DNA of 64,000 nt, taken from positions 64,381 through 128,380 of the forward strand of contig CAZLKB010000002.1 in NCBI GenBank assembly GCA_964560005.1. Reading direction: 5' to 3'. Positions 3,715 to 26,855 of the stretch are shown piece by piece (the first letter of the stretch is position 1; every line of letters starts with the position of its first letter). Source of the stretch: an uncultured Gammaproteobacteria bacterium. Lineage in GTDB: Bacteria > Patescibacteriota > Patescibacteriia > Patescibacteriales > GWC2-42-12. A model generated the notes under the pieces. It did no database searches. It had not been told where the DNA came from and was given only the letters and a program-made list of their open reading frames with translations. Position numbers and translations under genes: made by a program.

Positions 3715-4721
3715 ATTTACTTATAATTACCCAAAAAGTTGATATCAACGACAGTATCCTTGGTTTTATGACCGCCTGGATTTTAGAATTCGCCAAGCAT
3801 TGCCGGAAGCTTACGGTTATTTGCTTAGAGAAAGGCGAATACAGTTTTCCGGAAAATGTAAAAGTTTTATCGTTAGGCAAAGAAAAATCGCGGTCAAAAA
3901 TAAATTACGTTTTAAATTTTTATAAATATATTTGGCAGGAACGAAAAAATTATGACACGGTTTTTGTCCACATGAATCCCGAATATATTGTTTTGGGCGG
4001 GTGGTTATGGAAAGTGTGGCATAAAACCATAGCGCTGTGGTATACTCATAAAAATGTGGATTTAAAATTACGGATTGCGGAAAAATTGTCCGATATTATT
4101 TTCACGGCTTCGACTAAAAGCTTCCGGCTTAAGAGTAGAAAAGTCCAGGTTATGGGGCATGGCATTGATGTCCAAAAATTTGCGCCCGCAGCCAACGCCG
4201 CACCAGAAAAAATAATCTTAAATGTTGATAGAATATCACCAGCGAAAAATCAATTAAAAATAGTTAAATTGTTTGCCGAAATAAGGCAAGAAGTTATTGC
4301 CGCGCGCCTATTTCTTGTCGGCGCGACGGCGCTGGAGGAGGATAAGGCTTATGAGATTAAATTAAAGAAATATGTTGCTGAAAATAATTTATCGGAGCAA
4401 GTCAAGTTTTTCGGTGCGGTAGCCAACAAAGATATGCCTGGCATATATCGGCAGGCAAAAGTTTTTGTCAACCTTAGCGCCACCGGCAGCCTGGATAAAA
4501 CGGTTTTAGAAGCTATGTCTTCAAGTTTGCCCGTGGTAACCACCAATGAAGCTTTTAAAAATATAATTCCCGCGGGTAATTATTGTCCCGACGCCGAAAC
4601 CGCCCGGCAGAAAATTATTGAGTTTTTACAAGCCAGTAGCACGGTGAATTTACGCGAGATTGTCGTTGCCAGCCATAGTTTAAAAAAATTGGTAGAAAAT
4701 ATAATAAAAAAACTAACTTAG
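3711..4721 (+). CDS. Glycosyltransferase, GT-B fold
   Basis: 336-aa ORF. N-terminus MNLLIITQKVDINDSILGF and C-terminal VFVNLSATGSLDKTVLEAMSSSLPVVTTN resemble GT1/GT4 enzymes. Confidence 0.75.
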   Translation: MNLLIITQKVDINDSILGFMTAWILEFAKHCRKLTVICLEKGEYSFPENVKVLSLGKEKSRSKINYVLNFYKYIWQERKNYDTVFVHMNPEYIVLGGWLWKVWHKTIALWYTHKNVDLKLRIAEKLSDIIFTASTKSFRLKSRKVQVMGHGIDVQKFAPAANAAPEKIILNVDRISPAKNQLKIVKLFAEIRQEVIAARLFLVGATALEEDKAYEIKLKKYVAENNLSEQVKFFGAVANKDMPGIYRQAKVFVNLSATGSLDKTVLEAMSSSLPVVTTNEAFKNIIPAGNYCPDAETARQKIIEFLQASSTVNLREIVVASHSLKKLVENIIKKLT

Positions 4722-4726
4722 AAATT

Positions 4727-5359
4727 ATGTTTTTTAGTATTTTAAAAAGCTTAGCTCAGAATAAAAGCTTAGTTCGTACGCTGATGAATTTGGAACTAAA
4801 GAAGTATAAAATTTCCGGCCGGGTTTTAGATATTGGCGGAGGCGTAAATCCCAGCTATCTGAATTTTCTACAAAAAGGGGAAGCCGTCAAGGTAATAAAT
4901 TTAGATAGTAAAAATTCGGCGATTAATTTTGAAAAAGACCAGCTAACGGCTGGCGACTTGAGCATTGATTGCGTCTTGATGTTTAATATTTTAGAGCATA
5001 TTTATAACCATAATTTTTTAGCCGCCGAGGCTTTCCGGGTAACGAAAAAGGGCGGCCAATTATTGGGTTTCGTGCCCTTTTTAATTAACTATCACCCCGA
5101 CCCGCACGATTATTTTCGTTATACTTCCGAGGCTTTAGAGAAGATTTTTCATCAAGCCGGCTTTAGCAATATAAAAATAAAGGCAATCGGCGGCGGTCCA
5201 TTTTTTGTTAACTTCAACAATGTTATCTTTATTTTTCCCAAGATAATCCGGCTCCTAATTTTCCCTTTTTACTACCTTTTTGACTTTGGGCTTTTAAAAT
5301 TTAGGCCCGCCATGAAGACTAGATTTGCCCTGGGATATCTCTTTACTGCCCTAAAATAA
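4727..5359 (+). CDS. Class I SAM-dependent methyltransferase
   Basis: SAM-binding motif I VLDIGGG and an Methyltransf_11-like core (VLMFNILEHI ... KKGGQLLGFVP). Confidence 0.75.
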   Translation: MFFSILKSLAQNKSLVRTLMNLELKKYKISGRVLDIGGGVNPSYLNFLQKGEAVKVINLDSKNSAINFEKDQLTAGDLSIDCVLMFNILEHIYNHNFLAAEAFRVTKKGGQLLGFVPFLINYHPDPHDYFRYTSEALEKIFHQAGFSNIKIKAIGGGPFFVNFNNVIFIFPKIIRLLIFPFYYLFDFGLLKFRPAMKTRFALGYLFTALK

Positions 5360-5363
5360 TAAT

Positions 5364-6746
5364 ATGTTAAAAAAATATAAAACAGTAATAATAATTTTTA
5401 TAGTAGCCTTGATTTTAAGGTTAATTTTTTCTTTTCTTTTTTACAGGGCGGTAAATTTTGATACCGATAAATTTTTAAATTCCACCCATTCGGATGGCTA
5501 TTATAATTACGCCTATAATTTAATTCATTATAAAGTTTTTTCTGGTTATAACCCGCCAACTATCTTGGATTCTACGAGGACTCCCGGCTACCCGCTGATT
5601 ATCGCCGCTTCCTTATTTATTTTTAATTCGCTTTGGCCCTTGGTTATTATTCAAATTATTATTAGTAGTCTTCTGCCAATACTCGGGAGGAAGATAAGCC
5701 GAGAAATAATACCTAACAATAGTATCGCCAACCTGGTGGGCTGGCTTTTAGTCTTCGAACCGGTGGGGGTGATGCTGTCTCTTTGGATGATTTCAGAATC
5801 TTTTTTTGTTTTATTTTTCTTTTTGTTTATTTTATTTATCATTAAATTTATAAAAGCTGCAGAGCAGAATGCGGCTTTCAATAATTATAAAACAATTGGC
5901 TGGTCAGCGTTTTTATTAGGCATGGCGACATTAATTAAGCCGACTACGCTTTATTTGCCGATAATTTTGATCGCCGCCTGGCTGGCTTACAGGTATTTTT
6001 TAAAAAGAAATTTTTTATTGAAACAGGTAATAATATTTTTGATAATTTTTATATTAATCTTAAGCCCTTGGTATTATAGGAACTATCGTGCTTTTGGAGT
6101 TGCCGCGCTTACCTCGAATAAAGAGGAGGTTTTGTTTACCGCTCTCGCCCCCTCCGTGCTGGCGGTAAAAAATCATGAGAGTTACAGCCAATCGCTGATT
6201 AATTTTTTTAAATCAAAAGGAATTGAGCAATATCCCATAATTAACACGGGTAACGCCGGCTGGTTTCAACAGCAAGCCATTGAGGTTTTAATAAAAAATC
6301 CCAAAGAATCAATCATTGTTGCCGGCATCAGTCTATTAACTTTTTTTACGCATGACGGCCTGCTGACATTTTTAGGTTTTCTCGGTTTCTATCAAGCCAA
6401 TGGACTGACCGTTGGACAAATATTGACGCAGCCATTGCCGGAAATGTTTGTAACTTTTAAATCCCTGTTTTTTAGCTCGGCTTTTTTTATAATATTGATG
6501 CGATTTTTATGGATTTTAATTGCCGCAATATTTTTTATTAGTATAATCCGCACGTTTTTAAGGAAAAAGTTTACCGCCCTTTCGGCTCTGGGCTTAATCT
6601 TTGTCGCTTATTTTGCTTTAACGACAATCAGCAACGGTTTCGGCGTTAACGCCCGCTTCCGTTTTCCGGTTAACATTTTTATTTTTATGTTCGCCATTGA
6701 ATATTTATTTGAAATATTTAATTCCTTTAGAAGAAAAATTTTATGA
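5364..6746 (+). CDS. Polytopic membrane glycosyltransferase, GT-C fold (ArnT/PMT-like)
   Basis: 460 aa with many TM helices. The first loop has HSDGYYNYAYNL ... TRTPGYPLIIA, typical of GT39/GT83-type enzymes. Confidence 0.7.
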   Translation: MLKKYKTVIIIFIVALILRLIFSFLFYRAVNFDTDKFLNSTHSDGYYNYAYNLIHYKVFSGYNPPTILDSTRTPGYPLIIAASLFIFNSLWPLVIIQIIISSLLPILGRKISREIIPNNSIANLVGWLLVFEPVGVMLSLWMISESFFVLFFFLFILFIIKFIKAAEQNAAFNNYKTIGWSAFLLGMATLIKPTTLYLPIILIAAWLAYRYFLKRNFLLKQVIIFLIIFILILSPWYYRNYRAFGVAALTSNKEEVLFTALAPSVLAVKNHESYSQSLINFFKSKGIEQYPIINTGNAGWFQQQAIEVLIKNPKESIIVAGISLLTFFTHDGLLTFLGFLGFYQANGLTVGQILTQPLPEMFVTFKSLFFSSAFFIILMRFLWILIAAIFFISIIRTFLRKKFTALSALGLIFVAYFALTTISNGFGVNARFRFPVNIFIFMFAIEYLFEIFNSFRRKIL

Positions 6747-7441
6747 ACATTTTATCCGTGGTAATTCCAGTTTTTAATGAAAAAGAGACTATTAAAGAAA
6801 TTATCCGCCAGGTAGAGGCGGTGGAGTTGCCGCTAAAAAAAGAAATAATTATTATTGATGATTGCTCAACCGACGGCACCAGGGAAATTCTAAAAAGCTT
6901 TGATGAAACGAAATATAAAATAATTTTTAGGGAAAAAAATGAAGGCAAGGGCGCCGCCCTGCGTGACGGATTTTTGCGGGCGACCGGGGATATTGTTGTC
7001 ATACAAGACGCTGATTTGGAATACGATCCTCAGGATTATTTAAAATTGCTCGACCCTATTTTAAAAGGCAGGGGAGATGTGGTTTACGGCTCTCGTTTCG
7101 TTACCAGCGATCCTAAGAGAGTTTTATTTTTTTGGCATCTTTTGGGCAATACTTTTTTAACTAAATTTTCTAATATGCTATCAGGTTTGACTTTCTCCGA
7201 CATGGAAACCGGCTACAAAGCTTTTAGAAAAGAAGTGGTTGATTCTTTTAAGGATAAACTAAGATCAAAGCGCTTTGGTATAGAACCGGAATTAACCGCA
7301 CTGGTTGCCAAAGGCAAATGGCGGGTATATGAAGTCGGAATTTCCTATTATGGGCGCACTTACGAAGAAGGCAAAAAAATTAATTGGCGCGACGGCTTAG
7401 CGGCGATTTGGCATATTATTAAATTTAATATTTTTTCTTAA
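6743..7441 (+). CDS. GT2 glycosyltransferase (polyprenyl-phosphate sugar synthase-like)
   Basis: Motifs LSVVIPVFNEKETI, IIIIDDCSTDGT and QDADLEYDP (GT-A DxD). Paralog of 11234..11926. Confidence 0.85.
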   Translation: MNILSVVIPVFNEKETIKEIIRQVEAVELPLKKEIIIIDDCSTDGTREILKSFDETKYKIIFREKNEGKGAALRDGFLRATGDIVVIQDADLEYDPQDYLKLLDPILKGRGDVVYGSRFVTSDPKRVLFFWHLLGNTFLTKFSNMLSGLTFSDMETGYKAFRKEVVDSFKDKLRSKRFGIEPELTALVAKGKWRVYEVGISYYGRTYEEGKKINWRDGLAAIWHIIKFNIFS

Positions 7442-7449
7442 TTCATAAT

Positions 7450-8757
7450 ATGAAAGTAACTTTGTTGGAAGTATATTCACCGCGGCCGCAATACATTAAT
7501 AAAGATGTCATGGGAGAATACGGCATGGTGGCGCAAATTGGCGATTCTTTTTTGGCTAAAATTCTTGAGGCGTCAAAAAAGAAGTCGGTTAATATTCCGG
7601 TTTTTGCCTTGGGGTATTTGGCGGCAATACTGAAGAAAAACGGCCATCAAGTTGAATATAAATTTAACGAAATTCCGGCTGATGCGGATTTGGTTATCAT
7701 TCCTTCCTCTATAGTAGATTATAAGTTCGAGCTGTCATTCGCCCGAAAAATAAAGCAAGAAAACAGCAAGGCAAAAATTGGTTTTTTTGGTCCCTTTGCC
7801 TCGGTTATGCCCGAGCCGTATCTGGCAGTCGCGGATTTTGTAATAGTCGATGAACCTGAGCAGGTGATTGATAAGATAAGCGACCATTGGCTGCCGCAGG
7901 GAAAAATAATCGGTCAGAAAGTGGAAAATTTAGACGCTTTGCCTTTTCCGGTCTGGGATATATTTCCTTTAAAAAAATATTCCTATCGGCCTCTTTTAAA
8001 ACCCCGTCCCTTTGTGACCGTATTATCAAGCCGCGGCTGCACTTTTAATTGTCCCTATTGCCCCTATAAAGCTTATTATGGACATTTAAGGCAGAGGAGC
8101 GCCGTTTCAGTGATCGGAGAATTAAAGTATTTAAAAGCAACCTATGGTATTAAATCCGTGCAATTTCGAGACCCCTTATTTACCAGCCAAAGAGACCGCG
8201 CTCTGGCCATTGCCGATGGCATAATCGCCAATCATTTGAATATATTCTGGGGCTGCGAGACTCATGTTAACTGTTTAGATTATGAATTGATTGATAAATT
8301 ATACGACGCCGGTTTAAGAAGCATAAATTTAGGTATAGAGTCGTCGGATATAGAAGTGCTGGCCGGGGCTTCGCGTTTTTCCGCGCCCAAAAGCAAGGAG
8401 GCGGATATAATTAATTATTGCCAAAAAAAAGGAGTCCGGGTCGCGGCTTTTTATGTCTTTGGTTTTCCCGAGGATACCGAGGAAACCATTGAACGTACCA
8501 TTGGTTATGCGAAGAAGTTGAATACTGTTGTGGCTCAATTTTTTATTTTAACTCCTTTCCCCGGCACCGCCCTATATCGGGAGATGGCGGATAAGATTAC
8601 AGAGAAAGATTGGGAAAAGTTTAATAGTTTTAATCCGGTTTTCAAACATCCTAATTTATCAGCTCAGCAACTTTTGTCTCTTAAAGAAAAAGCTTTTGTG
8701 TCTTATTATTTTAGGTTTAGATATTTAATAAAATATTGGTTTAAAATATTATTTTAA
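7450..8757 (+). CDS. B12-binding domain radical SAM enzyme (paralog A)
   Basis: N-terminal Rossmann-like B12-binding region followed by the CxxxCxxC cluster SSRGCTFNCPYCPY and a radical SAM core (RSINLGIESS). Confidence 0.85.
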   Translation: MKVTLLEVYSPRPQYINKDVMGEYGMVAQIGDSFLAKILEASKKKSVNIPVFALGYLAAILKKNGHQVEYKFNEIPADADLVIIPSSIVDYKFELSFARKIKQENSKAKIGFFGPFASVMPEPYLAVADFVIVDEPEQVIDKISDHWLPQGKIIGQKVENLDALPFPVWDIFPLKKYSYRPLLKPRPFVTVLSSRGCTFNCPYCPYKAYYGHLRQRSAVSVIGELKYLKATYGIKSVQFRDPLFTSQRDRALAIADGIIANHLNIFWGCETHVNCLDYELIDKLYDAGLRSINLGIESSDIEVLAGASRFSAPKSKEADIINYCQKKGVRVAAFYVFGFPEDTEETIERTIGYAKKLNTVVAQFFILTPFPGTALYREMADKITEKDWEKFNSFNPVFKHPNLSAQQLLSLKEKAFVSYYFRFRYLIKYWFKILF

Positions 8758-8780
8758 AGGATTATTCATAAACGGAAGTA

Positions 8781-8928
8781 GTTGGGGAAAAAAAATTTAT
8801 TTTGAGTGAATACAAAATTGTATTATTTTTTATTAAAATTATTACATATACTTTAAAAAATAAATATAATTTTAATAAAAAATACTCAAATTTTGTCTTG
8901 AGCAAAAAACAAATTTTTTTACCCCAAC
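8781..8928. repeat. Long imperfect palindromic intergenic element (member 1 of 2)
   Basis: Outer arms gttgggg(a)8ttt / aaa(t)7accccaac. Perfect inner 17-bp stem tattttttattaaaatt (8824-8840) / aattttaataaaaaata (8868-8884). Shares the 16-mer AAATTTGAGTATTTTT (minus strand, 8878-8893) with 49562-49577. Confidence 0.7.
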
Positions 8929-8965
8929 AACTGCATTATATTAAAATGTTTGAAGATAATGTATT

Positions 8966-9790
8966 ATGAAAATATTAATTACCGGTAGCCAAGGATTTCT
9001 AGGCAAGCATTTAATACCTCAATTAAAGGCCGATGGGCATAATTGTATTTTTTTTACTGGCGATATTCGCAATAAGAAAGATGTGATTAAGTTATGGGAA
9101 GAAAAAGTTGATATTATCGTTCATTTAGCGGCTCAGATTAAAGGTAAAGACAGCCGGTTGTTTTATGAAGTTAATCAGGCCGGGACCGAAAACATATTAG
9201 AAATATGCCGCGAAATCAAGCCCCGCAGTTTTATTTTTTTATCTAGTATTAGAGTTTTATCCGCCTATCAAAATCCCTATAGTTTATCTAAGAAGGCGGC
9301 GGAGGCGGCGGTGATTAAATCCGGAGTGCCATATATTATTCTTAGGCCAAGCCTGCTTTATGGGCCGGGTGATAAAAATAATTTAGGATTTTTTTTCTCG
9401 CTTTTAGCTCGTTTTCCGGTTGTCCCGATTCATAATTTTAAAATTCAGCCGTTGTTCGTCGGCGATTTGGTAAAAATTATCGCCGGCTGCTTAAATTATA
9501 AAACCAATCAAATTATCAATATTACCGGCGAAGAGACGGTCAGCCTCGATGATCTTTTAAGGCAAGCCAAACCATTGCTTGATCGCCATTCTTATATTTT
9601 ACGCCTGCCATGGTTTTTTATTTGGTTTTTAAAAATAATATCAAGCCTGCCCCTTTTTCCTTTCCCCTGGTGGCAAATTAGGCCGTTATTAAGCAATGAA
9701 ATTTTTAAGAGCGATCCTTGGCCGGTTCTATTTAAAATTAAGCCGACCAAGCTAAGCGATGGCTTGAAGCAGACACTGAATAATCAATAA
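8966..9790 (+). CDS. NAD-dependent epimerase/dehydratase (SDR)
   Basis: Motif ILITGSQGFLGKHL (GxxGxxG) and a YSLSK (YxxxK) catalytic motif. Confidence 0.75.
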   Translation: MKILITGSQGFLGKHLIPQLKADGHNCIFFTGDIRNKKDVIKLWEEKVDIIVHLAAQIKGKDSRLFYEVNQAGTENILEICREIKPRSFIFLSSIRVLSAYQNPYSLSKKAAEAAVIKSGVPYIILRPSLLYGPGDKNNLGFFFSLLARFPVVPIHNFKIQPLFVGDLVKIIAGCLNYKTNQIINITGEETVSLDDLLRQAKPLLDRHSYILRLPWFFIWFLKIISSLPLFPFPWWQIRPLLSNEIFKSDPWPVLFKIKPTKLSDGLKQTLNNQ

Positions 9791-9792
9791 TT

Positions 9793-11208
9793 ATGAAAAG
9801 ATTAAAAGTTTTATTATTAAAACCCTATAGTCAAGTCGATGAATTAATCCCTCCTTTTAGTCTGGGCTATTTAGCAACCGCGATTAGGGAAAAACACGAC
9901 GTAACTATTTTGGACTGCCTTAAGGAAAAGCTGCCGCCGAATAAATTGGAACCAATATTAAAAAGCCATCAGTATGATGTGGTTTGTTTGCAAGTGTTTA
10001 CCTTTCATATTCCCGTAGCTTTAGAGTATATAAAAATTATCAATAGAATTTTACCGCCAGCCAGGATAATTTTAGGCGGCCCGCATCCGTCGGCTGACCC
10101 GGAAAATATTTTTAGTTTATTTCCGCAAATCGATTGGGCTTTTATCGGCGAAGCGGAAATTGGCCTGCCAAAGTTATTGGAATTTATAGCTTTGAATAAT
10201 CCGGTATCGGAGAGTTTGAATGATATACCCGGCCTGATTTGGCGCCGGTCGGACAAGGTTATTGTCAACCAGCAAGTTTTTTGCGTAGATATTGATCAGT
10301 TCGGCATGCCGGCTTGGGACTTGATACGCCCCGACACTTATCCGTTTGCTCCCCACGGCGGTTTTTTTAAGAATTACCCGATTGCGCCGATTATTATTTC
10401 CCGGGGCTGCCCATTTTCCTGCACCTATTGCTCCGGCCGGATCGTTTCCGGGAGGAGAATTCGCTATCGCAGCGTAGTCAAGGTTATTGAAGAAATAAAA
10501 TTACTCTATCATAAATACGGAATCAGAGAAATCCACATAGAAGATGATAATTTTACTCATAACCATGAGTTGGTAAAAGAATTTTGTCGAGAGTTAAAAG
10601 AAAATAAATTGGCCATTAGCTGGACCTGCCCCAATGGCGTGCGGCTTGACAGCCTAACCGAAGATTTGCTTAAGACCATGAAAGAGGCGGGTTTATATTT
10701 TATTTCCGTGGGCATAGAATCGGGATCCGATAAGGTGCTTAAAGATATGAAGAAAAGCTTAACCACCCGGGAAATCAGAGATAAGATTAATTTAATAAAA
10801 AAATGCGGCCTGGAGGTTTCCGGATTTTTTATTATCGGGTATCCTACCGAAACTAGGGAAGATATTGAGAAAACCATTGATTTCGCCTGCAGTTTAAGTT
10901 TAACCAGGGCCGGGTTCTTTTTATTTAAACCCTTTCCTGGCTCTGATATCGCCCGCGAACTGGTTAAAAGGGGAGAATGGCAGTTTAACAATTCGGCCGA
11001 AGCTTGGAGTAAATTTATTTTGGCCGATGCGGTTTATGCTCCCCCGGGGTTTACTTTAAAAGAAATAAAACAATGGCGTAAAAAAGCTTTACGCCGGTTC
11101 TATTTGAGGCCGCGGATAATTATTAATTTTATTAAAGCTATACGCGGACCGAAACATTTTTTGCTTATTATAAAAAGAATTTATAGCTGGCTCTGGCTGG
11201 CAAAATAA
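9793..11208 (+). CDS. B12-binding domain radical SAM enzyme (paralog B)
   Basis: Cluster ISRGCPFSCTYCSG. B12-domain-like N-terminus (LGYLATAIREKHDVTILD). Core motif FISVGIESGS. Confidence 0.85.
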   Translation: MKRLKVLLLKPYSQVDELIPPFSLGYLATAIREKHDVTILDCLKEKLPPNKLEPILKSHQYDVVCLQVFTFHIPVALEYIKIINRILPPARIILGGPHPSADPENIFSLFPQIDWAFIGEAEIGLPKLLEFIALNNPVSESLNDIPGLIWRRSDKVIVNQQVFCVDIDQFGMPAWDLIRPDTYPFAPHGGFFKNYPIAPIIISRGCPFSCTYCSGRIVSGRRIRYRSVVKVIEEIKLLYHKYGIREIHIEDDNFTHNHELVKEFCRELKENKLAISWTCPNGVRLDSLTEDLLKTMKEAGLYFISVGIESGSDKVLKDMKKSLTTREIRDKINLIKKCGLEVSGFFIIGYPTETREDIEKTIDFACSLSLTRAGFFLFKPFPGSDIARELVKRGEWQFNNSAEAWSKFILADAVYAPPGFTLKEIKQWRKKALRRFYLRPRIIINFIKAIRGPKHFLLIIKRIYSWLWLAK

Positions 11209-11233
11209 ATAATAAAGAAAAAATTAATAATTT

Positions 11234-11926
11234 ATGAAACTTTCTATAATCATTCCAGCCTATAATGAAAAAGACACTATCACCCAAATTTTAAACAAAA
11301 TGGAAGGGTTGGATTTGGGCGTAGAAAAAGAAATTATTATTATTGACGACTATTCTACTGATGGCACGCGGGAGATTCTTAAGCAATACCAAAATAAGTA
11401 TCAGATCCTATATCATGATAAAAATTACGGCAAAGGCCGGGCTCTGCGCAGCGGATTAGTTAAGGCCACCGGTGATTATACCGTTATTCAAGATGCCGAT
11501 TTGGAATATGACCCAAACGATTTTAAGACCATGCTCAAGAAAATAACGGAAACTGGCGGACAGGCTGTCTATGGATCGCGCCGACTTCAACATAGTTATC
11601 TTAGAAGGCGCCATTCCGGCCATATTTTTGCTATCGGCGGAATTTTTTTAACCTGGCTGGCCAACTTTTTATACGACATCAATATTACCGATGAACCGAC
11701 CTGCTATAAGATGTTTAAAACCGATTTACTGAAGGAATTGAGTTTGGAATGCGAAGGGTTTGAGTTTTGCCCGGAGGTGACCGCCAAGATCGCTAAAAGA
11801 AAAATAAAAATTTATGAGGTGCCGATTAATTATTACCCCCGGCATAAAAATGAAGGCAAAAAGATTAAGTGGCAAGACGCGGTTACGGCCGTTCGGGTGT
11901 TATTTAAATATAGATTTAAAAAATAA
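11234..11926 (+). CDS. GT2 glycosyltransferase (polyprenyl-phosphate sugar synthase-like)
   Basis: Motifs LSIIIPAYNEKDTI, IIIIDDYSTDGT and QDADLEYDP. Paralog of 6743..7441. Confidence 0.85.
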   Translation: MKLSIIIPAYNEKDTITQILNKMEGLDLGVEKEIIIIDDYSTDGTREILKQYQNKYQILYHDKNYGKGRALRSGLVKATGDYTVIQDADLEYDPNDFKTMLKKITETGGQAVYGSRRLQHSYLRRRHSGHIFAIGGIFLTWLANFLYDINITDEPTCYKMFKTDLLKELSLECEGFEFCPEVTAKIAKRKIKIYEVPINYYPRHKNEGKKIKWQDAVTAVRVLFKYRFKK

Positions 11927-11927
11927 A

Positions 11928-13328
11928 ATGTCTAAAGTATTATTAATAAATCCGCCATGGGTGATCGGTGAAGACAGGAATTTATGGCAGGATGTCGGCA
12001 GTTGCTGGCCAAGTCTGGGTTTGGCTTATATTGCCGCGGTTTTAGAAAAATCCGGCCACCGGGTTAAATATTTGGATTATCCGGCGATGCACTACACGGT
12101 TAATGATACGGCTAAAGCCCTGGCCGATAATAAGGAAAATTTTGATTATATCGGCCTTAGCGCTACCACGCCGTTGGTTAATAACGCACTTGCGATTGCC
12201 AAGGTAGCTAAGAAAATATTTCCTAAAGCTAAAACGGTTTTCGGCGGAGTTCACCCCTCGGTTTTACCCGACGAGGTAATGGCTCATGAGGAGGTTGATT
12301 TCGTAGCCATCGATGAAGGTGAGGAGAGTATGAGCGAGCTGGCCAGCGGGAAAAATCCGGCAGAAATTTTAGGTCTCTGCTATAAATTAGACGGTCAAAT
12401 TGTTAAAAATGCTCCTCGTCCGTTGATTAAAAATTTAGATGAAATTCCGCCTCCGGCCTATCATCTCTTACCTATGGATAAATATTTTCCGGCCGTTGGC
12501 AGTTTTAAGAGGTTGCCGGTTATGATTATGTTTGCCACCCGCGGCTGTCCCGGGCGCTGCACTTTTTGCTACCGTACCTTTCGCGGGATCGTCAGAAAAC
12601 GGTCGGCTCGAAATATTATTGATGAGATAAATATATTGCAGAGAGATTATGGCATAAAAGAAGTGGCTTTTTATGACGATACTTTTACCTTGTTTAAAGA
12701 GGTAGTTCGTGAATTTTGTGATATAATTAAAAAAGAGAAAATTGACCTGACCTGGTCCTGCTTTACCCGGGTTGACCACATCAATGAAGATCTCTTAAAG
12801 ATAATGAAACAAGCGGGCTGCCATTTAATATTATTTGGTATTGAGTCGGCCGATGAGCAGATTTTAAAAAATATAAATAAAAAGATTTCTTTAGATCAAG
12901 CGATTCAAGCGGTCAGAGCCTCTCGTAAAATCGGCATTGAAACCAGAGCCTCTTTTATGATCGGCAATCAAGGCGAGACCGAAGAAACGATTAAAAAAAC
13001 CATTGCATTCGCCATTAAATTGGACCCGGATGAAGTGCAGTTTAATATTGCTACGGCCTATCCGGGAACCGAATTATTCGCTTGGGCTAAAGAGCTGGGG
13101 TACATAAAAAGTTTTAATTGGGACGACTATAGCATGTCAAATGTAGTTTTAGAAATTCCGGGATTACCTCGTGAGAAAATGCAGTATTATTACGAGCTGG
13201 CTCATCGCAAATTTTATTTTCGGCCTAAAGTAATAATCCGCCGCCTCGCCCATATCAGAAGCTGGGAGCAATTTATTCAGGAAATTAAGGGCGGTTTGGC
13301 TTTAATAAAATTAATTTTTAAATTTTAA
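11928..13328 (+). CDS. B12-binding domain radical SAM enzyme (paralog C)
   Basis: I place the start at the ATG at 11928 (MSKVLLINPPW), 1 nt after the upstream stop. The track ORF from 11814 overlaps the GT2 gene. Cluster ATRGCPGRCTFCYR. Confidence 0.85.
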   Translation: MSKVLLINPPWVIGEDRNLWQDVGSCWPSLGLAYIAAVLEKSGHRVKYLDYPAMHYTVNDTAKALADNKENFDYIGLSATTPLVNNALAIAKVAKKIFPKAKTVFGGVHPSVLPDEVMAHEEVDFVAIDEGEESMSELASGKNPAEILGLCYKLDGQIVKNAPRPLIKNLDEIPPPAYHLLPMDKYFPAVGSFKRLPVMIMFATRGCPGRCTFCYRTFRGIVRKRSARNIIDEINILQRDYGIKEVAFYDDTFTLFKEVVREFCDIIKKEKIDLTWSCFTRVDHINEDLLKIMKQAGCHLILFGIESADEQILKNINKKISLDQAIQAVRASRKIGIETRASFMIGNQGETEETIKKTIAFAIKLDPDEVQFNIATAYPGTELFAWAKELGYIKSFNWDDYSMSNVVLEIPGLPREKMQYYYELAHRKFYFRPKVIIRRLAHIRSWEQFIQEIKGGLALIKLIFKF

Positions 13329-13331
13329 CCC

Positions 13332-14048
13332 ATGAAAGAACTGTCAATTATAATCCCGGCGTATAATGAGGAATTAATTTTAGAGGAAGAAATGAAAAAA
13401 ATTATTTTTTCCATGGGAAAAATTTTGGCCGGAGCGGAGTATGAAATATTAGTTGTTGAAAACGGCAGCACCGATCGAACCAAGGAAATAATTTTAAAGC
13501 TTGTGAAAGAATATCCGATTATTAGGGCGATAAATCTTCCTCGGGCCGGTTATGGTTTGGCTTTAAAGGCCGGCCTTTTAGCAGGCGATGGAAAAAATTT
13601 AGCTATTTTTAATGTTGATTTTTGGGACGTAGAATTTATTAAGCAGGCGCTGGGGTTAATTGCTGATTACGATCTGGTGATTGGTTCAAAAAATATGCCG
13701 GGCGCACGCGACCAGCGGAATCTACTAAGGCGATTTGTCACTAAAGCATTTAATATTTTTTTAAGCTTATTTTTTGGTTTCAAGGGCACGGATACGCACG
13801 GAATTAAGCTCGCCTCCAGGGAGAAAATTATTTCTGTTGTGGCTGAATGTAAAACCGACCGAGCCGTATTTGACACGGAGTTTGTGCTTCGGTCCCAGCG
13901 GGCCGGTTTAAGGCTGACTGAAATCCCGGTAAATTGCGTTGAAAAAAGAAAAACCAGGTTTAAGATTATGAGAAGCACCTGGCAGACGGTTAAAGATTTA
14001 ATTATTCTTTTTATAGTTTTGCATAAACATGATGATAAACAATATTAA
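13332..14048 (+). CDS. GT2 glycosyltransferase
   Basis: Motifs LSIIIPAYNEE and ILVVENGSTDRT, with a GT-A fold pattern. Overlaps the next gene by 20 nt. Confidence 0.8.
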   Translation: MKELSIIIPAYNEELILEEEMKKIIFSMGKILAGAEYEILVVENGSTDRTKEIILKLVKEYPIIRAINLPRAGYGLALKAGLLAGDGKNLAIFNVDFWDVEFIKQALGLIADYDLVIGSKNMPGARDQRNLLRRFVTKAFNIFLSLFFGFKGTDTHGIKLASREKIISVVAECKTDRAVFDTEFVLRSQRAGLRLTEIPVNCVEKRKTRFKIMRSTWQTVKDLIILFIVLHKHDDKQY

Positions 14049-15474
14049 AAAGATAATGCCGGAAGGCAAATGGTTTAATTTTTGCCTGGGTTTTATTTTC
14101 ATAATTTTTTTAGCCTTAATTTTAAAAGGTTTTCCGGATAGCCCTTCGCCCTGGTATGACGAAGGCATAAATTTAAACCTAGCAAAAAATTTGGCGCAAA
14201 ACGGGGTTTATGATTTTTCTACGGGCCCGGGCCAGTCTACCGGCAAGCCCTATTTATTGATTACTACCAATTATCCGCTTTTGGCTCCAATGGCAATATT
14301 TTTTAAATTGTTTGGTGCGGGATTACATCAGGAAAAAATCGTTATGGCCGTTTTTTTAATCGCCTTCTTCTGGTTGTTTTATTTGGCGGCAAAAAAATAT
14401 TATGGTAAGAAGGCGGCGTTAATCGGTTTAATATTAGTAACCGGTTTTTTGCCTTTGTATGGCAATGGCAAAGGCGCTTTAGGCGAAATACCGGGTATAG
14501 TTTATTTTTTATCCGGCTTATTAATTTTAGATAAGAAAAAATGGTGGCAGTTGATTTTAGCCGGGCTGTTATTTGGCCTGGCAGCCGCTACCAAGTCGTT
14601 ATATATGCTTTTTATTCCGGCCTTAGCCGGCGGTGAAATTTGGCTGGCGATAAAAAATAAAAAAATTGACTGGCGCAGATGGTGCTATCTGGCGGCCGGA
14701 GGCCTTTTACCCGTCTGCCTTTGGGTTTGGACCATACTACCGGCCAGTTTAAACCAGCAATCGTTTTCTGAATTTATCGCTTATTATTCTAATCCATATA
14801 ATGTGGCCCCCCAGGGCGTCATGTTTAAAAATTTTCTAAGATTCTTTACCGAAACAACCCCGCTACACTTTCTTTCATTGTTCGCCGTATTCCTGATTAG
14901 TAAGATTATCAAGCGGAGGATCAGCCAAATGGAAATTATAGTATGTTTTTTTATTGCTCTTGACTGGTTTTTTTATCTAAAAACTCCGGGTTGGTATAGA
15001 TATTTTTTCCCGGCGCATATCTTGCTTTTTATTTTATTTCCTTTTGCCCTTATGGAAATAGCCGGTAGCCTTTGGGGCGGCAAATTTAGAAAACAGACTA
15101 TATTTATTGCCGTAACCGTAGTTCTTTTGTCGCAAATGGCTCCTATGTTTACCAATATCAACACCAAGCTTTATTATAATCCGACGCCGAGGATTTTCGC
15201 TAATTATATAAATAAAAATATTCCTGCCGATAAGGATATTTTAGTGGTGAATAATCCGGCAGTCGCCTTTATGATAGATCGGGATAAAGTTTGGCAGCGT
15301 TTGGCTATCAATCCCTATCTAACGGTCGGCCGCGATTGGTTCGGCAGAAGCGAGTACCCGGATTACGTGGTTTTAAATGACGGTGGCAACGAGCTTTTGG
15401 GGGAAAATGATTTAACGCCTAAATACAAAAAAGCCTATCAGGCCGATAATGCCATATTGTGGCAGAAACAATAA
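14029..15474 (+). CDS. Polytopic membrane glycosyltransferase, GT-C fold (ArnT-like)
   Basis: 481 aa, multi-TM. First loop SPSPWYDEGINLNLAKNLAQNGVY has an acidic DE motif typical of GT-C enzymes. Confidence 0.7.
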   Translation: MMINNIKKIMPEGKWFNFCLGFIFIIFLALILKGFPDSPSPWYDEGINLNLAKNLAQNGVYDFSTGPGQSTGKPYLLITTNYPLLAPMAIFFKLFGAGLHQEKIVMAVFLIAFFWLFYLAAKKYYGKKAALIGLILVTGFLPLYGNGKGALGEIPGIVYFLSGLLILDKKKWWQLILAGLLFGLAAATKSLYMLFIPALAGGEIWLAIKNKKIDWRRWCYLAAGGLLPVCLWVWTILPASLNQQSFSEFIAYYSNPYNVAPQGVMFKNFLRFFTETTPLHFLSLFAVFLISKIIKRRISQMEIIVCFFIALDWFFYLKTPGWYRYFFPAHILLFILFPFALMEIAGSLWGGKFRKQTIFIAVTVVLLSQMAPMFTNINTKLYYNPTPRIFANYINKNIPADKDILVVNNPAVAFMIDRDKVWQRLAINPYLTVGRDWFGRSEYPDYVVLNDGGNELLGENDLTPKYKKAYQADNAILWQKQ

Positions 15475-15482
15475 TTTTTTTT

Positions 15483-16817
15483 ATGTCTGGAGTTAAGCAA
15501 ATTTATAAACATACCATATTTTGGATAATCATAGGGTCATTTTTAGTCTCTGCTCTTTACGCCTTTCATTTTAAGATTGAGCCGTCGGTAGACGCGCGAG
15601 CCTATAATCAGATTGCCTGGAATCTAGTGACCGGAAACGGTTACCGCGAAAATTTAGAAACCGACTTGGCTCACGATTACGCGATTGCCCGTGTCGGACC
15701 GCTGTATGAATATTTTTTAGCCGGTATTTATAAAATCTTCGGCCATCACTACGAGCCGGTTTGGCTGATCCAGGCCTTACTTCACGCTTTAAGCGCCTGG
15801 TTGGTTTATCTTGCTACAATATTAATATTGGTGGATAACCAAAAGAAAAAAACAGCCGGTTTGTGGGCGGCAGCAATTTTTGCCTTTTATCCTGATTTAA
15901 TAGAAATTTCGGCCATGCTGATGACGGAAACCTTTTCTTTATTCTTTATTTGTCTGATGGTTTATCTTTTTTTTCGTGTTGTTGGGCGGCCCGATTATCG
16001 GCTGATAGCGGTGCTGGGGCTAACGGCCGGGTTGGCGGTATTGGCGCGGCCGCCGGTGATTTTTTTGATTCCGGTTATGTTATTTTATTTTTGGAGAAAA
16101 AAATTGTGGCGCCAGGCAACCCTATTTACATTAATTATTATTTTGGTTTTTATTCCCTGGACCTGGAGAAATTACCAAGCTTACGGACAGCTAATGCCCT
16201 TCGGCGCAGCCGGCAATTTTAATTTTTGGATCGGCAATCGCCATGGCGGCGACGGCGAACAGGGGCCGACCAAGGAACAGATTGAATTCGTCACTACCCG
16301 CGAGCTTAAAGAAGTTAACGGCGAATCCATGAAGCAGTTTAAAAGTTTTTTATATAGCCACCCCTTTGAATTTATTAAATTGACCTGCTTAAGGATAAAC
16401 AAATATTTTAGCGTAATCAGGCCTATGGGGTTTTGGTTTTATCAGGAAGGGCTGGGGCAATTGTTATTTCTTTTATCTTCGGCGGCCGCTTCGGTTATAT
16501 TATTTGTCCTTGGTTTAGGCGGAATTTTAAAAACCGTTTTCTTAAGAGATAAACGGCTTTATTATTTATTAGCCATGGCGGCGTTTACCCCTTTAATTAT
16601 TTTTGTCACTGTTGTAGAAACCAGATATCGTTTTCAGATTTATCCGCTCTTAGCCATTTTCGCCGGTTATTTTATGGTCACACCACCGAAAGACCAGCCA
16701 AGGTGGTGGCAGGGAAGAATTTTTTGGTTGGCGGCCGGTTTAGTTTTTTTAAATGGCCTGATTGACGCGTTTTTGAGCCTGGAAAGACTTAAGGAAAGAT
16801 TCGGTTTATTTTTTTAA
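15483..16817 (+). CDS. Polytopic membrane glycosyltransferase, GT-C fold (GT39-like)
   Basis: Start moved to the ATG at 15483 (MSGVKQ), which avoids overlap; the track start is 15459. First loop VDARAYNQIAWNLVTGNGY, many TM helices. Confidence 0.7.
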   Translation: MSGVKQIYKHTIFWIIIGSFLVSALYAFHFKIEPSVDARAYNQIAWNLVTGNGYRENLETDLAHDYAIARVGPLYEYFLAGIYKIFGHHYEPVWLIQALLHALSAWLVYLATILILVDNQKKKTAGLWAAAIFAFYPDLIEISAMLMTETFSLFFICLMVYLFFRVVGRPDYRLIAVLGLTAGLAVLARPPVIFLIPVMLFYFWRKKLWRQATLFTLIIILVFIPWTWRNYQAYGQLMPFGAAGNFNFWIGNRHGGDGEQGPTKEQIEFVTTRELKEVNGESMKQFKSFLYSHPFEFIKLTCLRINKYFSVIRPMGFWFYQEGLGQLLFLLSSAAASVILFVLGLGGILKTVFLRDKRLYYLLAMAAFTPLIIFVTVVETRYRFQIYPLLAIFAGYFMVTPPKDQPRWWQGRIFWLAAGLVFLNGLIDAFLSLERLKERFGLFF

Positions 16818-21957: not shown

Positions 21958-22650
21958 ATGTCGCTTCAAAGATCCGATTTTTGGCGCGCAGCAATCGCGG
22001 GTGAGGCAATTGCTTGGCTTAGTTGGCCGATTTTAAAAAATTTAAACCTTTTTGATTACTTGAATTTACATTACAGAGAATTGTCATATCTGTTTTTTGT
22101 TATTTGGTTAATCCTGGTGCCGGTAATTTTATTAGTTTGGCTTTATTCGACCTATCGGTTATCTGTATGGCGTTGGCCCGTTATGTTTGAAGTAGGAAAA
22201 TATGGCGTGGTGGGCTGGCTGAATGTTTTTTTAAATACCAGCCTCTTTAATTTTTTTATTTTAATTAGCGGAATAGCCAGAGGCTGGTTGGTTGATTTGT
22301 TTTTCATAATCTCTGTCGTTATTACCATTACCTCGGCATTTTTTTGGAATAAATTTTGGACCTTTTCGTCCGGCCAAAGCGGCCGAGCGAAGTTGGAGTA
22401 TGGTAAATTTTTCGCCGTAATCGCCGCTACTTCCGGTTTGAATGTTTTTTTGTTACATTTAATCGTCAATATCATTGGAGCGCCGGCCGGTTGGGATTCT
22501 GAAATTTGGGCTAATATTGCCTTGGTGATTATGCTACCCGTTTCGATTTTTGGTAATTTTTTTGGCAGCAAATTGTTAGTATTTAAAAAATATGAAAATC
22601 AAGCTTATAAACTTAAGCCGCCAATACCAGATTTACAAAAAAGAAATTGA
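21958..22650 (+). CDS. GtrA-like membrane protein with N-terminal TM extension
   Basis: Multi-TM. GtrA-type motifs YGVVGWLNVFLNTSLFNFF and FFWNKFWTFSS. Confidence 0.7.
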   Translation: MSLQRSDFWRAAIAGEAIAWLSWPILKNLNLFDYLNLHYRELSYLFFVIWLILVPVILLVWLYSTYRLSVWRWPVMFEVGKYGVVGWLNVFLNTSLFNFFILISGIARGWLVDLFFIISVVITITSAFFWNKFWTFSSGQSGRAKLEYGKFFAVIAATSGLNVFLLHLIVNIIGAPAGWDSEIWANIALVIMLPVSIFGNFFGSKLLVFKKYENQAYKLKPPIPDLQKRN

Positions 22651-25337: not shown

Positions 25338-26855
25338 ATGACAAAAGAGCCAAAAATACTGTTAATCTATCCACCCAATCAATTATTACCCATGGAGACG
25401 CCCAGGCCTGACGGTTCCCTGGGGCTATTATATTTAGCCGGCGCTTTGGAACAGGCAGGTTTTAAAACCGATGTTTTGGATGCCTCGGTCGGCGCGAAAG
25501 ATGATAATTTAGAAGACACTTTTAATCATCAGGTTAGGCAAACTAATGGTTTAATTAGAATTGGCATGTCGCCTGAAAGAATTAAGGAGTTTATGATTAA
25601 GGGCGAGTATGATATTATCGGCATAAACTCAAATTTTACTTCGCAGACCAGCATGGCTTTTGATGTCGCCCGGATCGCTAAAAGCGTTAACCCGGATATT
25701 TTAGTTATTGTCGGCGGAGTTAACGCGCGCAGTTTATCGGAACGTTTTTTGGATAATGGAAACATAGATATAGTTTGCCTTAGCGAAGGCGAAAAAATAA
25801 TAGTTCGGCTGGTTCGTGACTGGAGCCGGGGACACGGCTATGAGCATATTTCGGGTATAAAATATAAAAAAGACGGCCAGTATATAACCAATCCGACTAC
25901 TCGCGATGATATTTATTTAAATCTTGATGAATTGCCGTTTCCCGCCTGGCATAAGCTTAATTTTGATCATTATGACAAAATCGCTTTTTCGCGCGGCGGC
26001 GGCTTAAATCCTAAAGAAGCGCGCTACGCTTCGCTGATGACATCGCGAGGCTGTCTTTTTAAATGCCATTATTGCCATATTTCTTTAGAAAAGGAAGGCA
26101 GTTTAAATACCGGTCAGATCGGCTTTATCCGTTTTAAATCAGTTGAACGGGTTTTAGAAGAAGTTAAAAGACTGCGCCAGTTAAAAGTTAAAAAACTTTA
26201 TTTTGAGGATGATTGTTTATTGGCGAAAAAGGACAGGATCAAAACTATCTTTGAAAGCGTCATAGATATGGGCTTGGAAATTGCCGCTATCAACGGCGTT
26301 AACCTTATTCATTTTCAGCGCAAAAACGAACAAGGTCGGTTAGAAATAGACATTGAATTTTTAAAACTTTTACGGCGAGCCGGGTTTACGGAAATTACTT
26401 TTCCCATTGAATCAGGCTGCCAGCGCATTATTAATAAATATGCCACCGCTAAACTGGATTTGGCAACTTTAGACATTATTAAGCTTATTCAAATTGCTTC
26501 CGGCCTCGGCATAAAATGTCCGATAAATATAATGATTGGTTTTCCCGATGAAACCGAAGTAGAGATAATGCAGAGCATAGAATTAGGGAAAAAATTAGTG
26601 GCAGCCGGCGCGGATTACTGCTCTTTTTTTATACCTACTCCATTTCCCGGAAGCAAACTGTTTGATCTGGCCATTTCCGGCGGGTATTTGGATAAAGATT
26701 TCAATCATGATGCCATGAATTATCATAATCCGGTCATGAAAAACACTTTGGTTCCGCCGGAAAGAATTTTGGAGTTGCGCGAATGGGCCTGGCGGACGGT
26801 AAATCGCCCGGAGTATGTCCGGGCTCGGCTAAAGGTAAGCGTTAAAAATTTATAA
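25338..26855 (+). CDS. B12-binding domain radical SAM enzyme (paralog D)
   Basis: Cluster TSRGCLFKCHYCHI. B12-domain-like N-terminus (LGLLYLAGALEQAGFKTDVLDA). A good SD (AAGGAG) lies upstream. Confidence 0.85.
   Translation: MTKEPKILLIYPPNQLLPMETPRPDGSLGLLYLAGALEQAGFKTDVLDASVGAKDDNLEDTFNHQVRQTNGLIRIGMSPERIKEFMIKGEYDIIGINSNFTSQTSMAFDVARIAKSVNPDILVIVGGVNARSLSERFLDNGNIDIVCLSEGEKIIVRLVRDWSRGHGYEHISGIKYKKDGQYITNPTTRDDIYLNLDELPFPAWHKLNFDHYDKIAFSRGGGLNPKEARYASLMTSRGCLFKCHYCHISLEKEGSLNTGQIGFIRFKSVERVLEEVKRLRQLKVKKLYFEDDCLLAKKDRIKTIFESVIDMGLEIAAINGVNLIHFQRKNEQGRLEIDIEFLKLLRRAGFTEITFPIESGCQRIINKYATAKLDLATLDIIKLIQIASGLGIKCPINIMIGFPDETEVEIMQSIELGKKLVAAGADYCSFFIPTPFPGSKLFDLAISGGYLDKDFNHDAMNYHNPVMKNTLVPPERILELREWAWRTVNRPEYVRARLKVSVKNL

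Follow-up and report, generated by a model that had tools for sequence, protein, structure and literature searches.

Conserved coupling of radical SAM genes to polyprenyl-phosphate-type GT2 and GT-C glycosyltransferase genes, and a possible role in remodelling lipid-linked sugars

What are radical S-adenosylmethionine (radical SAM) enzymes doing in a gene cassette whose other members resemble the parts of a lipid-carrier-dependent glycosylation pathway? This question is raised by a 64-kb stretch of contig CAZLKB010000002.1 (here called the window, meaning the whole stretch of DNA that was analysed), which is one glycan biosynthesis locus with nearly all its genes on the + strand and a GC content of about 0.38, and in which the unit under study occupies positions 5364-16817. 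Three-component lipid-linked glycosylation systems contain, to our knowledge, no radical SAM enzyme, and a full-text literature search with incomplete coverage returned no description of such an enzyme inside a polyprenyl-phosphate sugar/GT-C pathway; this agrees, as far as absence of evidence can, with the suggestion in a preliminary description of this DNA that the system is undescribed. We hold it very probable that the radical SAM proteins (rSAMs) are functional parts of a pathway that pairs family 2 glycosyltransferases (GT2) with GT-C glycosyltransferases. We also favour, at somewhat better than even, the reading that the region encodes a lipid-carrier-dependent extracytoplasmic glycosylation system with built-in radical SAM enzymes, which would remodel polyprenyl-phosphate-linked sugars before GT-C transfer.

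All genes of the unit lie on the + strand. The first encodes a GT-C-like polytopic membrane protein of 460 aa (5364..6746; approximately ten hydrophobic segments, without a Pfam match), and is followed by GT2a, a soluble GT2 of 232 aa (6743..7441; Pfam Glycos_transf_2, 124 bits), and by rSAM-A (7450..8757; Radical_SAM 58 bits), in which the B12-binding match, at 20.7 bits, falls below the Pfam threshold of 32.1 bits. A gap of 208 nt, containing a long AT-rich imperfect palindrome (8765..8944), separates rSAM-A from a gene for a short extended-type short-chain dehydrogenase/reductase (SDR) of 274 aa (8966..9790; Pfam Epimerase, 78 bits). Next come rSAM-B (9793..11208; B12-binding 63.5 bits, Radical_SAM 102 bits), GT2b, a soluble GT2 of 230 aa that resembles Dol-P-Man synthase (11234..11926), rSAM-C, of 466 aa (11928..13328; B12-binding 89.1 bits, Radical_SAM 108 bits), and GT2c, a divergent GT2 of 238 aa (13332..14048; Glycos_transf_2, 62 bits). 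The unit ends with GT-C1 (14029..15474; PMT_2 32.4 bits, eight hydrophobic segments) and the GT39/PMT_2-like GT-C2 (15459..16817; PMT_2 52.8 bits, PMT 36.1 bits), both above the PMT_2 threshold of 26.1 bits.

This order and these families are as the preliminary description had them, in agreement with the coordinates of the open reading frames (ORFs) and the Pfam assignments, and the tight junctions that it pointed to are all correct (11926/11928, 13328/13332 and the 14029/14048 overlap). The first in-frame start of rSAM-C is at 11814, and all its orthologs as well as the public gene call start at 11928; the public call for GT-C2 starts at the ATG at 15483, 9 nt past the GT-C1 stop, which gives a protein of 444 aa and is likely the true start. 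The unit itself probably begins earlier than first described, at the GT-C-like gene 5364-6746, because the product of this ORF resembles, weakly, both GT-C2 (by BLAST) and a PMT_2-bearing protein of a related locus (L004 ORF 16089-17417, 31% identity over 252 aa). This protein also has a weak NCBIfam match to the LA_3751/LA_3752 putative glycosyltransferase family, and in contig L078 a PMT-family gene occupies the equivalent place, ahead of GT2/rSAM-A/SDR. A promoter and terminator scan of the region gave a signal no better than that of shuffled sequences.

Is the placement of radical SAM genes next to GT2 and GT-C genes kept in other genomes? A scan using one genome per species gave 61 loci, in which ORFs were called and compared with the window proteins (the labels L002-L078 denote related loci and contigs compared with the window), and our census of rSAM-C comprises 33 distinct loci at 53% identity or above, of which 29 extend far enough upstream to be scored. 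In every one of the 29, a GT2b ortholog precedes rSAM-C on the same strand; the distance from the end of GT2 to the start of rSAM-C is at most 120 nt in 25 of these loci and at most 1.5 kb in the other four. A GT-C detectable by BLAST starts no further than 150 nt past the rSAM-C stop in 17 loci, and the identity of GT2b (72% down to 45%) declines in parallel with that of rSAM-C (79% down to 56%). In most genomes GT-C2 directly follows rSAM-C; in the window and in Portnoybacteria-like genomes an extra GT2/GT-C pair, here GT2c/GT-C1, is wedged between them, and in L004 this pair is located downstream of GT-C2, with a GT-C1 ortholog (50% identical) after the GT2c ortholog.

The loci at 53% identity or above belong to Patescibacteria, DPANN archaea and Elusimicrobia/Endomicrobiales, and the GT2-rSAM-C-GT-C trio was found also in Omnitrophota. 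The closest homologs of rSAM-C, rSAM-A and GT-C2 are from Patescibacteria (the Candidate Phyla Radiation, CPR), with Portnoybacteria and Staskawiczbacteria among them, so that the source would be, by its relatives, a Portnoybacteria-like patescibacterium. The radical SAM core of the cassette is 53-80% identical across bacteria and archaea. Assignment of the archaeal loci to DPANN rests partly on neighbouring genes, e.g., those for RNA polymerase subunit N and Rpr2, and several taxon labels of metagenome-assembled genomes (MAGs), such as 'Gammaproteobacteria', 'Methanosarcinales' and 'Saccharibacteria', result from automatic binning and were not relied on. The downstream gene in the archaeal loci encodes a membrane protein of 560-630 aa without a Pfam or PDB sequence match; the profile of this family aligns with the GT-C2 profile from a conserved Asp onwards, with moderate support (hhalign probability 66%, E 5.6e-5). 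At loci L028 and L030, where many neighbouring ORFs were not identified, the trio stands alone among recognisable glycan genes.

These counts bear directly on the simplest explanation of the locus, namely that GT2, rSAM and GT-C genes adjoin by chance, being merely abundant in a 64-kb glycan locus. Some adjacency would indeed be expected, with no fewer than 16 glycosyltransferase genes and six rSAM genes on a single strand of the window; the census refutes this explanation, with orthologous trios in dozens of bacterial and archaeal genomes, their order kept and their spacing minimal, and we give it next to no weight. The adjacency of GT2 and rSAM genes is far beyond chance, and the coupling to GT-C seen in the window is conserved in related genomes of two domains. 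Our comparison also modifies the preliminary description of the unit as iterated modules. Repeated GT2 and rSAM genes are present, as it stated, but they are better described as two distinct sets, GT2b/rSAM-C/GT-C2 and GT2/rSAM-A/SDR, plus the GT2c/GT-C1 pair. A recent tandem duplication of modules was rejected, as the rSAMs of the window are 24-31% identical to one another and GT2c is 27% identical to GT2a and to GT2b.

The second set, GT2/rSAM-A/SDR, is also widespread. At E < 1e-30 the rSAM-A family counts 503 homologs, spread over CPR, DPANN, Omnitrophica and Chloroflexi, and an SDR gene adjoins the rSAM-A ortholog in L014, L017, L021, L022, L075, L076 and L078. Four extra rSAM-A contexts on unrelated contigs (L075-L078) were picked by the length of the contig only, and all four show rSAM-A with an SDR and a GT2, with a GT-C near. 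For example, the Aenigmarchaeota contig L075 carries rSAM-A, SDR, a phosphodiesterase/sulfatase-like protein, GT2 and two PMT genes; the Omnitrophica contig L076 carries rSAM-A, SDR, GT2, a homolog of a 614-aa protein of the window and another B12 rSAM; and contig L077 carries PMT_2, GT2 and rSAM-A, with an adh_short SDR opposite. Contig L078, which looks archaeal, carries PMT, GT2, rSAM-A, SDR, rSAM, rSAM and GT-C, so that its order of families is that of 5364-16817, except that the second and third GT2s are missing and a single GT-C closes the row. The GT2s adjoining rSAM-A orthologs are of the GT2a type in L075 and L078, and resemble GT2d, a further GT2 of the window, in L076 and L077. In the window SDR, the GxxGxxG and YxxxK motifs are intact (GSQGFLG and YSLSK), and its solved relatives are epimerases and reductases of nucleoside diphosphate (NDP) sugars. 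One ORF of 680 aa (L018, 1872-3914) joins an rSAM-A ortholog (residues 1-429) to an SDR (residues 464-679), the SDR part aligning only from residue 53 of the window SDR, with the nucleotide-binding start not recovered; this ORF may be a real fusion, or may result from misassembly or a frameshift. No fusion protein of rSAM-C or rSAM-A was found among the top 120 homologs of each.

In other genomes rSAM-A and SDR abut or overlap; in the window the pair is split by the palindrome, which therefore looks like an insertion or a local regulatory element, perhaps a hairpin. The palindromic element noticed in the preliminary description is real: its 39-nt outer arms (8765-8803 and 8906-8944) pair with 79% complementarity, and the stretch of 181 nt has a folding energy of -43.3 kcal/mol (z = -7.9). 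A second copy of the arm was not found within the window, and an Rfam scan of the whole window, palindrome included, gave no match.

Also side by side with these sets, two features of the rSAM-A contigs were seen. A 614-aa polytopic membrane protein of the window (30907-32751), with no Pfam match, has a homolog in L076 (10274-12034; 22% identity over 616 aa, E 3e-24) that stands right after the GT2 of the rSAM-A locus, and may represent another unrecognised GT-C-like family. Beside the rSAM-A locus of L075 is a gene for a HypF/NodU-like carbamoyltransferase (4229-6943) with intein and LAGLIDADG endonuclease matches.

What kind of glycosyltransferases accompany the radical SAM genes? GT2a and GT2b, which are 46% identical, are approximately 230 aa long with at most one weak hydrophobic segment. 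The best solved relative of GT2b is the Pyrococcus furiosus Dol-P-Man synthase 5mlz, matched over the full length at E 2e-17, with three ArnC structures and then GtrB following, and the top NCBIfam models for GT2a and GT2b are AglJ, ArnC, PpgS, Dol-P-hexose transferase and PgfS, all scoring under their equivalog cutoffs. GT2d, which lies outside the unit (26889-27815, + strand), is ArnC-like along its entire length (181 bits with the ArnC model) and carries membrane helices at its C terminus. These relatives are in line with the earlier assignment of the GT2s to the polyprenyl-phosphate sugar synthase type. The two downstream proteins had been called GT-C, and both exceed the Pfam threshold, with the fold confirmed for GT-C2. 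In source records GT-C2 is named 'glycosyltransferase family 39 protein', and the Asp of the first loop is invariant in the family. A sequence search of the PDB with GT-C2 gave no match and a search with its family profile returned only Pmt1 (E 0.0018); its identity was resolved by the fold search, in which the AlphaFold 2 model (pLDDT 87.5, pTM 0.90) had top PDB matches that are all GT-C enzymes: AglB, PglB, ArnT, STT3, Pmt4, Emb, DPY19 and ALG9/12.

With a GT2 of the DPMS/ArnC/GtrB type beside a GT-C, the unit is like GtrA/GtrB/GtrC, ArnC/ArnD/ArnE-F/ArnT, Dpm1 or Ppm1/PMT, and CsbB/YfhO. GtrA-domain proteins occur in the window locus, outside the unit, and in the DPANN locus L005 two sugar SDRs and a half-size EamA/SMR pair (ArnE/F-like) directly precede the GT2. 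It differs from these systems in the rSAM or rSAMs inserted between GT2 and GT-C, in that three of the four window GT2s are without membrane helices, and in its short GT-Cs (444-481 aa), which have no large soluble domain. Judged from the protein families, the unit would work like the GtrB/GtrC, ArnC/ArnT and Dpm1/PMT systems, its GT2-type and GT-C features matching theirs, an in-cassette flippase apart.

Which known radical SAM family do the rSAMs belong to? All six B12-type radical SAM genes counted in the preliminary description have Radical_SAM matches, and rSAM-D, E and F match B12-binding at 56-62 bits, above threshold; rSAM-D (25338-26855, + strand) lies outside the unit, where it forms a further rSAM/GT2 pair with the GT2d gene that follows it. 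In rSAM-C, the motif CPGRCTFC is invariant throughout the family and the cluster cysteines are C207/C211/C214; the family has more than 2700 homologs, the top 120 listed being 59-82% identical (the window's own sequence aside). A CxxxCxxC motif is visible in rSAM-A, whose B12 domain is degenerate across the family, with a precomputed PF02310 match in only 8 of the top 120 homologs, and B12 binding by this protein is improbable. The rSAMs lack membrane segments, so they are, by prediction, cytoplasmic. None of the six reaches the cutoff of any NCBIfam model: against HpnJ, the best-scoring curated model for rSAM-C and rSAM-A (cutoff 577.6 bits), the scores are 292 for rSAM-C, 174.5 for rSAM-B and 165 for rSAM-A, and against BchE they are 205 for rSAM-C and 184 for rSAM-B, BchE and HpnJ being the two best models for rSAM-B and both far under their cutoffs.

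By fold, the best full-length match of the rSAM-C AlphaFold 2 model (pLDDT 82.7) is AprD4 (TM 0.74-0.77), followed by the cobalamin enzymes TsrM, MgmA, CysS, OxsB and TokK, of which OxsB and TokK surface only as weak PDB matches. In a neighbour-joining tree built with annotated HpnJ and BchE genes recovered from plasmid records, AprD4, MgmA and others (GenK, OxsB and HpnP/R sequences not being included), the rSAM-C family forms a clade with 100% bootstrap support apart from HpnJ, the rSAM-A family forms a clade with 98%, and HpnJ groups with a Lawsonia protein at 94%. By these sequence comparisons, none of the window's rSAMs falls into a characterised family, whether related to glycans or not, and rSAM-C is the founding member of a conserved, unnamed family. 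The robust grouping with a family of known non-glycan function that the preliminary description had named as an outcome to look for was seen neither in the tree nor with NCBIfam.

The last result bears on the explanation that the substrate of the rSAMs is not a sugar but, for instance, the polyprenyl carrier, some other lipid, or an acceptor peptide or protein, and that they are merely co-regulated with glycosylation genes. Relatives at approximately 30% identity include ladderane and HpnR/P lipid enzymes, BchE of chlorophyll synthesis, the protein-modifying MgmA and enzymes of ribosomally made peptides that are modified after translation (RiPPs), and distant rSAM-C orthologs can be orphan genes. 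Set against this are the tight coupling to GT2 kept across two domains, the coupling of rSAM-A to a sugar-type SDR, and the location of the enzymes, since the acceptor of a GT-C is extracytoplasmic and the rSAMs are cytoplasmic; moreover, the window's Pfam-annotated genes include no precursor peptide or RiPP machinery, although no dedicated search for short peptide ORFs was made. We regard a non-sugar substrate as a quite improbable explanation.

Similarity to HpnJ raises a different possibility, as the preliminary description had drawn an analogy with the hopanoid enzymes HpnI/HpnJ/HpnK. As in that system, GT2 and B12-type radical SAM genes are translationally coupled, rSAM-C being 34% identical to HpnJ over 95% of its length, and HpnJ acts on a membrane-lipid sugar (PMC13459092). 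An hpnJ deletion removes the cyclitol ether but not other extended hopanoids, and HpnJ was proposed to act on bacteriohopanetetrol (BHT) glucosamine (PMC13459092). A basic, aromatic C-terminal tail is common to rSAM-A, B, C and HpnJ, which is weak evidence for remodelling on the lipid. The gene order, in contrast, is reversed (rSAM then GT2 in the hopanoid locus), and a GT-C follows in the window where the hopanoid pathway has none. Taken as membership, the analogy fails: rSAM-C scores 292 against the cutoff of 577.6, approximately half; Paraburkholderia graminis HpnI is unlike the GT2s, with a BLASTP E of 0.25 or worse against all those of the window; and the PIG-L gene at 61421, present as described, is 45 kb from the unit, where it adjoins WbqC and an aminotransferase among amino sugar genes. 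No PIG-L gene was found in the seven related neighbourhoods that were fully read (L002, L004, L005, L075-L078), and no hopanoid genes are among the window's Pfam matches. On the P. graminis plasmid pPHS1_P itself (L070, 3926-6516), hpnJ and hpnI overlap by 4 bp, rSAM then GT2; a gene with a lysyl-phosphatidylglycerol synthase domain follows hpnI and there is no hpnK within 4 kb.

Even without membership, the GT2/rSAM pair could make a finished membrane glycolipid with a rearranged, cyclitol-like head group, as in BHT cyclitol ether or calditol lipids, with the GT-Cs belonging to parallel GT2/GT-C pathways. Lipid scavenging is presumed in CPR and DPANN organisms, and head-group remodelling would be useful to them. 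HpnJ is the best curated model for rSAM-C, matched over its full length, and its gene overlaps a GT2 gene; HpnJ and the archaeal Cds have both been proposed to contract the ring of a lipid-linked sugar (PMC13459092), and a product with a contracted ring would serve a GT-C poorly as donor. The evidence in the cassette itself points the other way, with GT2s that resemble polyprenyl-phosphate sugar synthases and lack similarity to HpnI, an rSAM-C clade that is separate from HpnJ and scores half the HpnJ cutoff, no adjacent PIG-L deacetylase and, in 17 loci, GT-C2 orthologs that directly follow rSAM-C and co-vary with it. A glycolipid end product is, in our judgement, improbable, if less so than a non-sugar substrate.

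The closest solved protein by sequence for rSAM-A, B and C alike is AprD4 (103 bits for rSAM-A), which takes part in the C3' deoxygenation of an aminoglycoside sugar. The N-terminal B12-like domain of AprD4 is not known to bind cobalamin, and that of rSAM-A is comparably degenerate. AprD4 is a radical SAM sugar 1,2-diol dehydratase that works with an NADPH reductase partner, AprD3 (PMC5461906); rSAM-A, too, has an adjacent and conserved reductase-type partner in the SDR. Identity to AprD4 is only 21-28%, and rSAM-A differs from it in the cluster motif (CxxxCxxC in rSAM-A, CxxxCxxxC in AprD4) and in the GT2/GT-C context, which is not that of an aminoglycoside cluster. Membership of rSAM-A in the AprD4 family was rejected, with 113.8 bits against an NCBIfam cutoff of 500.

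Together with the conserved gene order, these comparisons are the basis of the pathway that we propose; its lipid-bound substrate, the sequence of its steps, its chemistry and its acceptor are predictions. At the cytoplasmic face, GT2a, GT2b and GT2c would each transfer a monosaccharide from a nucleotide sugar to polyprenyl phosphate, and the radical SAM enzymes would remodel the sugar while it is still bound to the lipid. The probably cobalamin-dependent rSAM-C, translationally coupled to GT2b, would carry out a radical C-H functionalisation, either C-methylation, the commonest reaction of class B radical SAM enzymes (PMC12931638), or alternatively an HpnJ-like skeletal change. For rSAM-A, probably without cobalamin, and the SDR, a two-step radical/NAD(P)H transformation may be envisaged: an AprD4/AprD3-like dehydration and reduction leading to deoxygenation, or an anaerobic counterpart of the oxidation-reduction epimerisation by DprE1/DprE2. 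Either of these suits a probably non-B12 rSAM with a dedicated reductase, and by analogy deoxygenation or oxidation/reduction epimerisation fits rSAM-A and the SDR better than the C-methylation or rearrangement suggested before. The modified lipid-linked sugar would then be flipped and transferred to a surface acceptor by a GT-C, with GT-C2 serving the rSAM-C branch, GT-C1 working with GT2c, and the GT-C-like protein encoded at 5364 probably serving the GT2a/rSAM-A/SDR branch. Any single chemistry for the rSAMs is put forward tentatively, at odds that stay short of even.

For the lipid-linked sugar as the rSAM substrate, we lean slightly towards acceptance. We infer remodelling on the lipid from gene order and translational coupling to GT2, the precedent of HpnJ, tailoring by ArnD and DprE1-E2, and the C-terminal tail. 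On-lipid tailoring steps are known in the Arn pathway (ArnD) and from DprE1/DprE2, the mycobacterial oxidase and SDR reductase that convert a polyprenyl-phosphate sugar on its lipid, with the Emb/Aft GT-Cs using the product. The placement of rSAM-A and SDR between genes for a polyprenyl-phosphate sugar synthase and a GT-C recalls this pair; the resemblance would be functional only, as DprE1 is a flavoenzyme and there is no sequence relationship. A more specific version of this reading, in which radical SAM enzymes act directly on polyprenyl-phosphate monosaccharides, so that C-methylated, deoxygenated, epimerised or ring-rearranged sugars exist only on the carrier and are then installed by a GT-C, through a horizontally shared, oxygen-independent route, has in our estimation an even chance of being correct.

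A related scheme would have the rSAMs tailor the nucleotide-activated sugar in the cytoplasm, as DesII and enzymes of the GenK and AprD4 types act on soluble sugars, with the GT2 then loading the modified sugar. We know of no characterised sugar-active radical SAM enzyme that acts on other than a soluble substrate; AprD4, the closest solved structure, binds a soluble pseudodisaccharide, the relatives of the SDR are NDP-sugar epimerases and reductases, the rSAMs are soluble, and NDP-sugar enzymes are abundant in the surrounding locus. The rSAM genes, however, lie between GT2 and GT-C, often overlapping the GT2 gene or 1-20 nt from it, and not among NDP-sugar genes; some loci (for example L028 and L030, where many ORFs are unidentified) have only the trio among recognisable glycan genes; and HpnJ, the nearest characterised relative, works after its GT2, on a lipid-bound sugar (PMC13459092). 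On this evidence, we consider tailoring at the nucleotide-sugar stage unlikely, although it is the strongest of the alternatives.

Several observations weigh against remodelling of a lipid-linked sugar by enzymes of a GT2/GT-C pathway. From gene order alone one cannot tell whether the enzymes act on the lipid-linked or on the nucleotide sugar, and HpnJ-type ring contraction would yield a carbocyclic phosphate, hardly an obvious donor for a GT-C. In the branch of rSAM-C relatives at 40-52% identity (Planctomycetota, Desulfomonile and others), a GT2 lies immediately upstream in only 3 of 20 loci, with about two-thirds keeping a GT2 or PMT_2 gene within two genes, and several rSAM-C genes of this branch are orphans, beside FtsK, FeoB or Opp genes. 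One rSAM relative, at 31% identity, is encoded in a gene cluster for a peptide (RiPP). In the rSAM tree the deep nodes have bootstrap values of at most 26%, and the link to AprD4 has 12%, so that similarity to HpnJ or AprD4 cannot fix the chemistry. rSAM-B is without conserved context, and no close ortholog of it was seen beside rSAM-C elsewhere. The rSAM-A/SDR fusion in L018 is a single case from an automatically binned MAG, of a length that is absent among the top 120 rSAM-A homologs. Lastly, there is no flippase gene among the Pfam-annotated genes of 5364-16817, and the GtrA-domain proteins lie outside it: a GtrA/DPMS-type membrane protein (21958..22650, + strand) and a GtrA domain fused to GT4 (1166-2599), the two matching PF04138 at 51.7 and 78.4 bits. 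Neither is adjacent to the unit; the former is a candidate flippase or membrane anchor for the soluble GT2s.

How might the same cassette come to be present in both bacteria and archaea? Orthologs of rSAM-C and rSAM-A are encoded on DPANN-type contigs (L005 10001-11401; L035; L075 7001-8296; L078 7001-8305) and are 55-64% identical to the bacterial proteins, with their neighbours kept. Because of this identity and the shared neighbours, the sequences imply transfer of a whole cassette between CPR bacteria and DPANN archaea. Together these two groups account for a large fraction of microbial diversity and are believed to live on host cells, with a surface chemistry about which almost nothing is known, and the high conservation of the cassette points to a surface sugar modification important for a host-attached lifestyle. 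If our reading of remodelling on the carrier is correct, at least two new radical SAM families would have lipid-linked carbohydrate substrates, with defined partners (GT2, SDR and GT-C) that make reconstitution feasible; radical chemistry would join the short list of on-carrier reactions (ArnD, DprE1/E2), and CPR bacteria, DPANN archaea and other anaerobes would share an oxygen-independent route to unusual surface sugars.

Relatives in cultured bacteria are more distant. Plasmid rSAMs of Lawsonia intracellularis and Solidesulfovibrio carbinolicus are 28-34% identical to rSAM-C, and no GT2-rSAM-GT-C trio was shown there; these loci may nevertheless offer a genetic entry point. In S. carbinolicus, a cultured sulfate reducer, plasmid pDCAR1 carries a glycan locus (L068, 66129-83555) with four radical SAM genes. 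One of these lies after a glycosyltransferase gene, its product sharing 34% identity with rSAM-C, and the locus could serve as a tractable model.

The rest of the window also encodes GT4 enzymes, methyltransferases and an ABC exporter. Between 19865 and 29922, a set of nucleotide sugar genes of the heptose type, encoding a SIS isomerase, a HAD phosphatase, a transaldolase, an NTP transferase and a GHMP kinase, surrounds the GtrA-like gene, rSAM-D and GT2d, and plasmid 1 of L. intracellularis (L069) carries a similar mix of SIS, rSAM, methyltransferase, GT2, HAD and GHMP kinase genes. Further downstream, the region 39995-60704 contains two separate nonulosonic acid pathways, each with NeuB, a CMP-transferase, aminotransferases and PseB-like dehydratases, and lying among their genes are those for two KpsS/C-like Capsule_synth proteins and, within one of the pathways, the sixth B12 rSAM (49656-51053).

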